Part shown: in pieces, positions 42,792 through 47,109 of the stretch | Position numbering within the stretch: the first letter of the stretch is position 1 | Layout of the letters: each line of letters begins with the position of its first letter | Assembly (NCBI GenBank): GCA_963754875.1 | Contig: CAVWHO010000010.1 | Location: 192,001-256,000, forward strand | Length of the DNA: 64,000 bases | From: Nitrospirota bacterium | Lineage (GTDB): Bacteria; Nitrospirota; UBA9217 | Direction of reading: 5' to 3' | Made by a program: the position numbers and the translations under genes | The notes under the pieces: model-generated | Told to the model about the DNA's origin: nothing | What the model saw: the letters and a program-made list of their open reading frames with translations, nothing else | Databases searched by the model: none

Positions 42792-42820
42792 TTGACAACT
42801 GCATCGATCAGGAATATATT
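42792..42820 (+). promoter_or_regulatory. sigma70-type promoter
   Basis: TTGACA-N17-TATATT, ~180 nt before the lactonase-like gene. Confidence 0.5.
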
Positions 42821-42999: not shown

Positions 43000-44100
43000 A
43001 TGAAAAGAATCTATCTTCTGGTCGCAGTGTTTGGTTCCTTGTTCTTTATTCTAACAGCCTGTAAAGGGGGCGACAATAATTCAACTTCAACACTAGTTCC
43101 GCGGTTTGCTTATGTCGTCAATCAGACGGATGCCACTGTTTCGCAATACACGATTGAAGCTAATGGTGGCCTATTGCCAATGAGTTTGCCCACTGTTTCG
43201 ACCGGAGCAGTCCCAATCTCCATAACAGTTGACCCGGCGGGCAAGTATGCATATGTCGTTAATTGGGGTAACAACAGCATCTCGCAATATACAATCAGTT
43301 CTGACGGAAGTCTTGCGCCCATGAGTTCTCCCTCAGTATCGACCGGAATGAGTCCTCATTCCATGACCATTGATTCCTCCGGAAAATATGCTTTCGTAGC
43401 AAATAGGAACGATAATAGCATATCACAATACGGAATCGGCACACACGGAAGGCTCATATCAATGAGTACTCCTACTATTCAGACAATCGAAGGTCCTATT
43501 TCCGTCACTGTTGACCCGTTTGGTAAGTACGCATACGTCGTAAATGACAGCAATACAGGTTCAAGCATTGCACAGTATACGATCAGTGTTGACGGCAGTC
43601 TCACCCCAATGAGCGTTGCCACAGTTCCGGCTGGTGTAAATTCCATGTCCATCGCCGCTCACCCCTCCGGAAAGTATGTTTACGCGGTTAATGCCAGTAG
43701 CAATAACATTTCGCAATACACGATCGGCGTAGATGGCAGCCTGTCGCCGATGAGCGCCGCCACAGTTACAACTGGGCAAGAACCTTTGTCAATCAGTATC
43801 GATCCCTCCGGTAAGTACGCATATGTGACCAATTGGAGCGACAACGGCATATCTCAATTTTCGATTGATGCAAATGGAAACCTCACTCCGCTGGCTGTTA
43901 CTACTATTGCTGCGGGTCAAAGTCCCATATTCATCGCCGTCGATGTCTCGGGAAAGTACGCATATTCGGCTAACTTCGGTGATGGCACCATATCTCAGTT
44001 TATGAGCCGATCTGACGGCAGCCTCTCCTCGATGAGTACAGCAACGATCTCGACAGGATGGTGCCCGACCTTTATAACAACCGTGGGGCGGTATCAGTAA
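43000..44100 (+). CDS. Lactonase-family 7-bladed beta-propeller lipoprotein
   Basis: Lipobox LTAC; repeated P.SI.VDP.GKYAYV.N..ISQY.I..DGSL.P blades. Confidence 0.85.
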   Translation: MKRIYLLVAVFGSLFFILTACKGGDNNSTSTLVPRFAYVVNQTDATVSQYTIEANGGLLPMSLPTVSTGAVPISITVDPAGKYAYVVNWGNNSISQYTISSDGSLAPMSSPSVSTGMSPHSMTIDSSGKYAFVANRNDNSISQYGIGTHGRLISMSTPTIQTIEGPISVTVDPFGKYAYVVNDSNTGSSIAQYTISVDGSLTPMSVATVPAGVNSMSIAAHPSGKYVYAVNASSNNISQYTIGVDGSLSPMSAATVTTGQEPLSISIDPSGKYAYVTNWSDNGISQFSIDANGNLTPLAVTTIAAGQSPIFIAVDVSGKYAYSANFGDGTISQFMSRSDGSLSSMSTATISTGWCPTFITTVGRYQ

Positions 44101-44202
44101 TAAATACACTTATATCATACTCTGAAACCGTGGATGAGTCGAAGTTGCCATGAGTGAGCGGTGAACACGAGGTGCCGAAGGATCAAATTAACAAGCGGGT
44201 CC

Positions 44203-46340
44203 TTGCGTCAAGGTAAGCCCGAGACAGTGGGAATCCCGCCGTGAGGCGCGATGAAATCTGTCATTGTTGTCCAGTGGGTGAGAGCGCCGATTGCTCAAGT
44301 CCCATCCGACTAAAGCCTAGCCGGCAGGTCGGTAGCGAAGCCCGCGTGCGTTTCCGTGAGGAAAGGTGCGAAGCCGGGCGGAGCAAGTTTGCAGGCCGTG
44401 TTATTGAATCCCGAAATATGTATAGTTGTGGACAGTAGGATAACCTTCAAAGCATCGGAGGGAAAGCCAACGTATGGACCCAACGGAAGGCAGCAGTCCC
44501 CGGAGCGCTACGGCGAGCGAAAGGGACACCACCGGGATCTTAGAGCGGGGCACGCACACAAAGGGATAACTCGGGAACTTGAGAGAGCCTGATGTTTCCA
44601 TGCTGAACAGCCGGACGGACACCGGCGGAACAAAGTCCATGGCGTCGGTAACGCGCTCTCTAATGCCGACGATCGAAACCAGAGAGCAAGCATGGTATCG
44701 TAGCGCCACCTAAAGCGAAGTGCTGCGAGACGGGCGTCAGGCAGTCTTAGCCGATCATAGTACCGATGGTCCCAAAGCATCCGGGACCGGGAAGGTGGGG
44801 AACCGAGGTCCAAGGGACCCACTCAAGGGAAGGAAAGGCCGGGCATAACGTCTTCTGGAAGGAACTATGAGAGATACTCCGGGATCGCCAATCATATCAC
44901 CGAAACTCCAGAAGGTTGCGGAACAGGCACGGAAGTATCCGGAGATGGTGTTCAACAATCTGTATCACCTGATCGATCATGAACTTCTCTTGGAAGCCTA
45001 CCACCGGACGAGCAAAGACAGTGCGCCAGGGGTGGATAAGGTCACGGCACAAGAATACGCCGAAGCCTTGTACGGAAACCTCCACGACCTGCACGAACGG
45101 CTCAAATCAAGCCGTTACGTGGCTCCGCCCGTCGAACGGGTATGGATCAAGAAGGAAGACGGCAAGCTGAGACCGATAGGCAAACCCTGCTACGGAGACA
45201 AGATCGTCCAACGAGCGGTGGTCATGATCCTGGAAGTCATCTTCGAGCCGATATTCCAATCGTTCTCCCATGGCTTCAGAAAAGGTCATAGTCAGCATCA
45301 GGCGATACGGGAACTACGAGAACAGTGCATCAAACTGAACATCAACTGGATAGTGGATGCGGATGTAAGCGGATTTTTCGATACCATCAATCACGAAATG
45401 CTCAGAAGCTTCATCGAGAAGAAAGTGAAGGATGGAGGAATACTGAGGCTCATCGGCAAATGGCTCAATGCCGGAGTGCTCGACGGCGGGAGCATGATAT
45501 ATCCCGACAACGGCACCCCACAGGGCGGAGTAGCATCGCCGATGCTCGCCAACATATTCCTGCACTATGTGCTGGATGAATGGTATGTACAGGACGTACA
45601 GCCACGCCTCAAGGGAAAGAGCTTTCTGATTCGGTATGCCGATGATTTTATCATCGGTTTCGAGCACGAAGCCGACGCCCGCCGGGTCATGGAAGTCCTG
45701 CCGAAACGGTTCAGCCGCTTCAAGCTGACCATTCATCCCGAAAAGACGAAGCTGGTGCGGTTCATCCAGCCGTCCCCGAAAGAGGAGACGGAAAAGGAAA
45801 ATGGGACATTCGATTTTCTCGGATTCACCCATTACTGGGCCAAATCGCTTCACGGTTACTGGTTCATCAAGCGAAAGACAATCGGCAAGCGGCTCCGAAG
45901 GTTCATGAAAGCTATATGGGAATGGTGCCGGGAGAATATGCACGAACCCATTGAGGAACAGCACAAAGCGCTGCGTTCCAAGCTGCGCGGCTACTACCAG
46001 TACTACGGGATTCGCGGAAACTACAAGATGCTTGAAGTGGTATTTGAGCATACTGAGCGAGCCTGGCGGCGCTGGCTAGGGAGGCGCTGCAGCAAAGGCT
46101 ACGTGACCGTCGAGGAGTTTGACAGCTTCCACCGGAGGGTCTTTCCGCTGCCGAAACCCAGGATCATCCACAACGTCTGACCGGGCCAAGGGACAGCAAA
46201 AGTTATGCGCCAAACGGGGACGCGTCACCTGTTTGGTTAGCCGCGGGCTAAGGCCTGCGGTGACTGACGAACCGGATGCCTTAATCGGGCACGTCCGGGT
46301 CTGTGGGGGGAGCGGCGGGCAACCGCTGCTCCTACCCGGA
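44203..46340 (+). mobile_element. Group II intron (class E-like, no En domain)
   Basis: 5' TTGCG; EBS1 GGACCC (44476-44481) complementary to the exon end GGGTCC (44197-44202); DV/DVI at ~46269-46340; RT/maturase ORF. Confidence 0.9.
44867..46180 (+). CDS. ltrA: Group II intron reverse transcriptase/maturase
   Basis: APGVD, RPIG, GTPQGG, YADD, FDFLGFTH, LP.PRIIH; no HNH domain. Confidence 0.95.
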   Translation: MRDTPGSPIISPKLQKVAEQARKYPEMVFNNLYHLIDHELLLEAYHRTSKDSAPGVDKVTAQEYAEALYGNLHDLHERLKSSRYVAPPVERVWIKKEDGKLRPIGKPCYGDKIVQRAVVMILEVIFEPIFQSFSHGFRKGHSQHQAIRELREQCIKLNINWIVDADVSGFFDTINHEMLRSFIEKKVKDGGILRLIGKWLNAGVLDGGSMIYPDNGTPQGGVASPMLANIFLHYVLDEWYVQDVQPRLKGKSFLIRYADDFIIGFEHEADARRVMEVLPKRFSRFKLTIHPEKTKLVRFIQPSPKEETEKENGTFDFLGFTHYWAKSLHGYWFIKRKTIGKRLRRFMKAIWEWCRENMHEPIEEQHKALRSKLRGYYQYYGIRGNYKMLEVVFEHTERAWRRWLGRRCSKGYVTVEEFDSFHRRVFPLPKPRIIHNV

Positions 46341-46409
46341 ACAGCGACGCGCCAAAGGCGGCGCGTGACCCGCGAGTTAGGCCACATCCGAACATGCGAG
46401 AGGAGAATC

Positions 46410-47040
46410 ATGAGCAAAGTATTCGTCAACATTGGACTTAGCCTCGATGGCTACATGGCACCGGAAGGAATGACCATGGAGCAAGCCTGAGTACAAGAAC
46501 TGGGGCGCGAAGTGGGGTGCGCTGATGGCCTGGATCATCAATCAACAGTACTTCCGCGAGAACCTCAAGCTCGGACCAGGGGGAGAGACCGGCCCGGTCA
46601 ATGACCTGGTTCGCAGCACCACGGAGCGCATCGGTGCCAACATTATGGGCAAGCGAATGTTCGACCAAGGCGAGGTCGCCTGGCCAGAGGAGGCTCCGTT
46701 TCACACACCGGTATACGTTCTTACCCATGAGAAACGCGAACCCTGGGTGCGCCCCGGCGGGACGACCTTTTACTTCATCAATGACGGGCCGGAGCGTGCC
46801 CTAGAGCTGGCTCGGGAATCCGCAGGCAGTCGTGATATTCGTATCGCGGGTGGAGCGGATGTGATCCAGCAGTACCTGAACCTGGGTGTCATCGACGAGC
46901 TGGAAATCGCCTTGGCACCCGTGTTGTTCGGCGGCGGGCGGCGTCTCTTCGAGAACCTACGCGAGCCCGGGCCGCAGTTTCGCATTGACAAGGTTCTTGA
47001 TGGTCCAGCCGCCACACACTTGCGCTATGTGCGTCAGTGA
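46410..47040 (+). CDS. RibD-C/dihydrofolate reductase family protein in a gene cassette (frameshift ~46482)
   Basis: SLDGYMA, IMGKRMF, PVYVLTH, IAGGA, PVLFGGGRRLF. Confidence 0.88.
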
Positions 47041-47045
47041 GGGCG

Positions 47046-47109
47046 GCCTAACAACCGGTTGCAGCGGACGGTCCGCTGCACGGCCCGCCGTTGAACCGGA
47101 GCGTTCACA
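47046..47109 (+). other. Integron attC site
   Basis: R'' GCCTAAC, ACCGGTTGCAGCGG / CCGTTGAACCGG arms, R' GTTCACA; R'' is complementary to the upstream core GTTAGGC. Confidence 0.85.

Follow-up and report, generated by a model that had tools for sequence, protein, structure and literature searches.

A class E group II intron in the top strand of an integron attC site of a Nitrospirota bacterium

Which group II introns can settle in the recombination sites of integrons, and by what means do they recognise them? Reviews credit bacterial group II introns with three target specificities and assign the attC site to class C alone (PMC4424553); the class C introns that use it, known as IIC-attC, enter the bottom strand and run counter to the cassettes (PMC3001079). 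Statements on published work in this article refer to the available portions of the papers cited. The question is raised again by a locus of a Nitrospirota bacterium, located in a window of 64 kb (the whole stretch of DNA that was analysed, 64,000 nt), where an initial annotation had described a class E-like intron in an attC's top strand, co-oriented with the cassettes, and had proposed a second, independent route of integron parasitism. We consider it probable that this is an intact, recently mobile class E intron (En-minus, IIB-like), belonging to a lineage that has specialised on integron attC sites and uses their top strand.

The interrupted attC site and its intron

When the intron is removed, a site of 59 nt is recovered; folded as DNA, either strand of it pairs the R'' box with the R' box. 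It shows the order R''-spacer-L''...L'-spacer-R', with GTTRRRY, pairing arms and an extrahelical base, and the rejoined sequence 44186-46382 passed our own attC heuristic, which is not the IntegronFinder model. The 59-bp attC expected by the initial annotation is thus restored and, by fold and heuristic, looks like an attC, and both the junction and the fold bear out the orientation that had been given for the intron. From the L''/L' pairing, the insertion point is read after the fifth base of L'', in the top strand, at the extrahelical base, an element whose importance for attC has been reported (PMC2727003). The coordinates of all features are collected in Table 1.

Table 1. Features of the interrupted attC site, the intron and the neighbouring genes (positions in the window)
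Feature	Position	Strand	Details
Lactonase-family beta-propeller gene, upstream	43000-44100	+	built of 141-bp repeats
attC, left part	44186-44202	+	R'' 44186-44192 (AAC 44190-44192); 5-nt spacer 44193-44197; first 5 nt of L'' 44198-44202
IBS1	44197-44202	+	
IBS2	44190-44195	+	
Complete class E group II intron	44203-46340	+	2138 nt; starts TTGCG, ends CCGGA; no target duplication
Putative alpha	44266-44271	+	complementary to alpha' 44439-44444; inferred from an alignment read by eye
Putative EBS2, TATGTA	44417-44422	+	6 nt directly after the kappa GAAA
EBS1, GGACCC	44476-44481	+	in the d3 hairpin loop, 44466-44491
Putative gamma U	44747	+	pairs with the terminal A46340
Intron-encoded RT/maturase ORF	44867-46180	+	437 aa; frame open; YADD at 45635-45646
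Domain V and domain VI	46269-46340	+	DV with AAC triad and 5-nt terminal loop; DVI with bulged A46334
attC, right part	46341-46382	+	remaining L'', terminal hairpin, L' 46365-46370, R' GTTAGGC 46376-46382
Next cassette gene, RibD_C/dihydrofolate-reductase-like	46410-47040	+	frameshifted near 46481
Second attC, uninterrupted	47046-47109	+	same orientation; R' degenerate after GTT

The flanking letters differ, which leaves no room to shift the junction by even one base, and EBS1 pairs 6/6 with the last six bases of the 5' exon. Three further observations fix the junction independently. A second copy of the intron on another contig of the same genome (C22), 99.8% identical (5 differences in 2138 nt) and with other flanks, is inserted at the same base of another attC-like site, a solitary one between a Mg-chelatase-family (ComM-like) gene and RNase J; an uninterrupted attC of the same family is present in the IntI-linked array of contig C13 (about 78042); and intron-free contigs from the DNA runs X1 (3 contigs) and X2 (10 contigs) carry the R''-spacer-GGGTCC arm continuing straight into position 46341. 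The exact match of EBS1 to the attC left arm, proposed at the outset as the mark of the 5' junction, is confirmed by this pairing, the second copy and the empty sites. The presence of two near-identical copies with different flanks at the same attC base suggests recent homing.

The element has a DI-DVI ribozyme with domain V and a bulged-A domain VI, a YADD RT ORF in domain IV and a precise insertion, as befits a group II intron. Domain I was matched by the Rfam family group-II-D1D4-6 at 44296-44547 (106 bits), and the bulged A of domain VI lies 7 nt from the intron 3' end. The 437-aa protein shows RVT_1 plus a GIIM match slightly below the cut-off, with no further family and no endonuclease domain. 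The unusual terminal A is backed by covariation of the gamma-gamma' pair, which is T/A in 50 loci and G/C in 2 outgroup introns. The location of EBS2 was set by four relatives (L083, L109, L110 and L064), where 5-6 of 6 positions pair with the exon from -13 to -8, and in the query its central TGT is complementary to the ACA that ends R''. EBS3 was sought in the intron and not located.

An earlier EBS2 candidate, GTTG, which lies 3' of the true position, was dropped once the outgroup introns had fixed the place of EBS2; its complementarity to YAAC persists. The hexamer that follows EBS2, TAGTTG (44423-44428), is near-invariant in the attC subclades described below and also complementary to YAAC, and in one relative (L015) it changes together with the exon. 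It may possibly be a second or alternative contact with R''.

The intron stands in a remnant with two attC sites. No integrase was found in the 64-kb window or on its contig, and the intI and attI that accompany the array of a complete integron are missing beside this one. By consensus matching, a promoter-like site (42792-42820, 11/12) precedes the lactonase-family gene and no plus-strand terminator-like site occurs between it and the intron, so read-through into the intron is plausible. The lactonase-family gene itself gave a weak VasX_N match in Pfam, below the cut-off. At the frameshift of the following cassette gene, relatives in runs X2 and X6 have 8 extra bases, pointing to either a pseudogene or an assembly error. 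The spliced junction 44202|46341 was absent from the contigs of RNA run X16, which is no evidence against splicing because these contigs covered only short conserved pieces. In a search of reads, no run contained half of the sequence words of the locus. In runs X2 and X16, contig joints across 44851-46228 leave out most of the ORF, which suggests that other samples contain ORF-less derivatives.

Elsewhere in the host genome, the only TIGR02249 match over the cut-off is on C13, where a complete chromosomal integron (78000-83910; L108) combines an IntI over the cut-off with at least five attC on the opposite strand. Its cassettes include an amidase, an HNH protein and an Mrr_N protein, and its attC sites at about 82092 and about 78038 are empty potential targets of the intron. 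Other attC clusters or solitary sites lie away from the integrase (C1 32448-36876, C16 444708-447538, C20 about 175443-177114, C8 about 277068 and C16 about 289724), many of them with an R' degenerate straight after GTT, as expected of cassettes dropped at secondary sites; the genome scan behind these figures gave 29 candidates, some of them clearly false. The genome's other RTs belong to class C introns behind terminator-like hairpins, present as three copies of one intron (C18, C20 and C17; L002-L004), two of them interrupted, and to an intron of one more, unrelated type on C8 (L005). The closest named RTs to the query are from Nitrospirota, with 85-91% identity.

RT class and previously described introns of integrons

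In a class tree of 25 rows, the query clusters with all three class E references in a clade of 12 rows (support 100/99; reference labels from Table 3 of PMC8919778, Miura). The types g1, g6 and CL2 were absent from the reference set, a length/E-value filter removed the ML rows, and three B. cereus reference records were replaced by others. A forced grouping of this clade with class C costs 107 log-likelihood units and is rejected (p-AU 9e-62), and a quick tree of 73 rows agrees with the class E placement. The impression that the RT looked like class E was therefore well founded. Within the class, the query belongs to a subclade (100/100) with TYGYG-like starts and GGA ends. The intron also shows the further traits of class E, namely the lack of an endonuclease domain, the 5-nt terminal loop of domain V (PMC3753933), a 6-bp EBS1-IBS1 pairing and an EBS2-IBS2 pairing, the latter with a position taken from relatives and weak in the query itself.

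The IIC-attC introns (S.ma.I2, Ge.s.I1; PMC3001079, PMC7923331, PMC4424553) resemble the query in being En-minus and in inserting inside attC near R'', and their bottom-strand IBS1, TTGT, is the top-strand ACAA, that is, the stretch paired by the query EBS2. However, they combine a class C RT with bottom-strand insertion in R'' opposite to the cassettes, a 3-4 bp EBS1, no EBS2 and dependence on the hairpin, whereas the query is a class E intron of the top strand, inserted in L'' 10-11 nt after R'' and equipped with a 6-bp EBS1 plus EBS2.

Introns outside class C have already been reported around cassettes. Sonbol & Siam (2021; PMC7923331) described H.ha.F1 and H.ha.F2, two 5'-truncated class E introns in CALIN, and UHB.I2 (CL1/IIB1), just downstream of an attC; like the query, these are non-C introns co-oriented with the cassettes, and the former have a class E RT in CALIN. 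In H.ha.F1/F2, by contrast, attC-like structures are placed upstream of the fragments, which have no defined EBS or insertion site because of the 5' truncation, and their proteins look like another class E branch in a comparison made by eye only. In its available portions, that work describes no targeting rule at the level of a lineage for these systems, and it cites (as ref. 31) an unusual top-strand IIC intron in an attC of Enterobacter cloacae, co-oriented with the cassettes. This intron differs from the query in being of class C. It reportedly targets the R' core.

Bacterial class E (IIE) introns (PMC3552965, Toro & Martinez-Abarca 2013; PMC3753933, Nagy et al. 2013; PMC8919778, Miura et al. 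2022) share with the query the RT clade, the lack of an En domain, EBS1 plus EBS2 and the 5-nt DV loop. The available portions of these three papers do not mention attC specificity, and the class E relatives retrieved for comparison are located in IS elements or other DNA. The accessible text of a 2022 review (PMC8876359) mentions IIC-attC only, and that of PMC12584367 and PMC5737381 contains nothing on class E attC introns. A full-text literature search, with most subscription papers outside its reach, turned up no account of a lineage of class E introns with insertions in the L'' top strand. The earlier proposal of a second, independent route holds in that the intron is of class E and not C, but "second" overstates the case, given the top-strand IIC intron, the CL1 intron beside an attC and the class E fragments of PMC7923331; the intron is not simply the second route of integron invasion.

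Target position and pairing in the relatives

Relatives were taken as loci from genome and metagenome scans (RTs 53-100% identical), the held-out set coming mostly from 401 genomes of another class. Distinct 5' exons or insertion sites were the counting unit (n=57; 29 in the first set, 28 held out); the counts include kin and same-genome copies, which are not independent. Removed were duplicates (L060, L062, L068, L094, L095, L039), loci without a 5' boundary (L019, L031-L033, L038, L043, L045, L047, L050, L061, L112, L119, L129, L130), one with an unreliable boundary (L124), distant or truncated loci (L020-L022, L051-L058) and class E outgroups below 53%. Viral contigs gave 0 loci, and the best relative in the plasmid collection was 58%.

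The AAC of R'' occurs 10-11 nt upstream of the insertion in 45/57 distinct sites, against a background of 3.0%. It is at -13 in 36 sites and at -14 in 9, and it was recovered in 24/29 sites of the first set, 21/28 of the held-out set and 29/33 of the genome-derived loci, as well as in three copies read later (L140, L147, L148). All 45 cases come from the 50 sites of two subclades, hereafter the attC subclades, versus 0/7 in sister subclades; a single origin of these two is neither shown nor rejected (p-AU 0.215, an open fork).

Own EBS1/IBS1 pairs match at 5.1 of 6 bp and permuted pairs at 3.27 +/- 0.15 (35 distinct hairpins, identical register range for both kinds of pair), and 0/10000 permutations reached the observed value. 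This covariation follows an IBS1 that takes 44 different hexamers among the 57 sites. EBS2 is WATGTA in 40/49 sites where it is readable, with compensatory changes of EBS2 and exon in L015, L121 and L123. RTs that are only 55-60% alike still share this EBS2, whereas EBS1 follows the variation of L''; sister lineages have other EBS2 sequences, matched to non-attC exons. In the attC group the EBS2-IBS2 pairing is weak, mostly 3-4 of 6. Some EBS1 sequences also pair poorly, with just 4/6 in L025/L026 and unequal values for copies within single genomes (6.0/3.5/4.0 in G659; 5/6/5 in G424). Two exon positions are near-invariant, T at -3 (34/36) and A at +1 (36/38), and the 3' exon matches the L'' consensus A-G/C-x-G/C-G-A/G-C. 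EBS1 alone does not account for the targeting, given its wide variation and frequent mismatches; what stays constant is EBS2/R'', together with T at -3 and A at +1.

For whole attC sites in the relatives the evidence is weaker than for the position of R''. A strict fold heuristic was passed by 10/38 rejoined sites, versus 3/1500 genomic controls and 86/1406 cross-paired flanks. With L-box thresholds scanned after these strict results were known, a score >=15 was reached by 13/38 sites, versus 0.13% of 1520 shuffles and 0/1500 genomic YAAC, and a lenient score >=12 by 23/38, versus 7% in controls. The failing sites (15/38 on the lenient score) include sites that look decayed or reduced to the left arm, as well as probable chimeras from metagenomes; a 3' flank shared by two loci (L029/L030) is an example of metagenome flanks that may be chimeric. 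Two checks proposed together with the initial annotation, attC flanks and covarying EBS1/IBS1 in homologues, both came out in its favour, with an R'' box at a fixed distance in most relatives and many whole attC, and none of the three outcomes that had been named as refuting it was observed, with our own heuristic in place of the attC model. On this sequence evidence, the intron is intact and appears representative of a cross-phylum class E lineage aimed at the attC left arm.

Other attC-like sites within 20 kb of 20 genome copies shared the strand of the intron in 21 cases and lay on the opposite one in 8, and an IntI occurred in 2/20 regions; one region (L144) picked up another copy at its edge. 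The intron is on the G-rich strand in 18/20 regions and also on the query contig (C10), a skew confounded with the coding strand and ambiguous near the C22 copy. This location agrees with the strand preference of sedentary integrons, in 25/30 of which the leading template carries the bottom strand of attC (PMC5371416).

Several relatives show signs of decay or nesting. Intron 5' fragments of about 300 and about 25 nt are still joined to attC left arms in one genome (L099 and L106; G239), the former continuing into an attC-like right arm, which suggests decay by deletion. Related class E introns interrupted or flanked by other group II introns were observed at L036/L039, L045/L047 and L084.

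Proposed recognition of attC and its consequences

Does this distribution reflect specialisation, or a simpler process? Ordinary class E retrohoming could be directed to a loose motif, YAAC-N7-T-N2|A, of which attC left arms would be the commonest harmless match; with other insertions purged, the enrichment would come from host selection. The 15/38 rejoined sites below even the lenient attC score fit such a scenario, and so do the non-attC targets of sister subclades with other EBS2 sequences and the existence of 8 perfect AAC+IBS1+A matches outside attC in the host genome. All eight are empty, though, and both host copies are in attC, a hint of further determinants or of selection (the numbers are small and selection confounds them). 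The scenario is also at odds with the constancy of EBS2 between distant RTs, the tracking of L'' by EBS1 and the fit of the 3' exon to the L'' consensus, and we regard it as unlikely. Targeting could instead be guided by structure, as in IIC-attC, the RT recognising the folded top-strand attC hairpin and base pairing only setting the register. Such a role was speculated on in PMC7923331, and it would accommodate the EBS1 mismatches tolerated inside one genome and the weak EBS2 pairing. Yet IBS1 and IBS2 lie within paired stretches of the folded hairpin, which would need opening, the right arm is missing from many targets, and the covariation of EBS1 extends over 6 bp, compared with 3-4 bp in IIC, all of which makes this very improbable.

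A misread IIC-attC intron or an assembly artefact has scarcely any credibility left: the host does have class C introns and its assembly is incomplete, but the class C grouping is rejected, the second copy has other flanks, empty sites exist and dozens of relatives occupy the same position, which together refute it.

Under the preferred reading, a class E lineage specialised on the attC top strand, the intron would be transcribed by read-through from the upstream gene and then spliced out. The target of reverse splicing by its RNA-RT particle would be the top strand in single-stranded form, probably as lagging-strand template at the replication fork, where En-minus introns prime (PMC4424553); in most sedentary integrons the bottom strand of attC is on the leading template (PMC5371416), which would expose the top strand there as single-stranded DNA. 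The near-frozen EBS2 would read the end of the conserved R'' box, and EBS1 the spacer end plus the first half of L'', drifting along with each attC family as the covariation indicates. EBS1/EBS3 and the RT probably recognise three fixed bases, T(-3), A(+1) and the first A of AAC. With L'' split at the extrahelical base by 2.1 kb, the attC should not fold into an IntI substrate, and the flanking cassettes would be locked, while splicing would leave downstream transcription intact. Co-orientation makes transcription from cassette or neighbouring promoters possible, serving both splicing and spread.

A more ambitious proposal, which we put forward tentatively and at less than even confidence, is that the intron acts as an attC reader at the family level. 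The frozen EBS2 and the RT contacts would lock onto the invariant R'' and locate the extrahelical base by its distance of 10-11 nt, leaving EBS1 as a free, retargetable module. It would then be a natural broad-range integron-freezing retroelement, inactivating recombination without cassette silencing, shaping CALIN decay in at least two phyla and mirroring IIC-attC, with the same four bases read on the opposite strand.

A lineage of class E introns homing to attC sense strands through EBS pairing would represent a convergent specialisation on integrons, achieved by a different mechanism. It allows one to test directly how a ribozyme that reads sequence deals with a family of targets in which structure, rather than sequence, is conserved, and it lends support to the view that homing is the reason why EBS2 is retained (PMC3753933). 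The intron could become the starting point of an attC-directed targetron, and its lineage may provide a cause for the locking of cassettes and the formation of CALIN.
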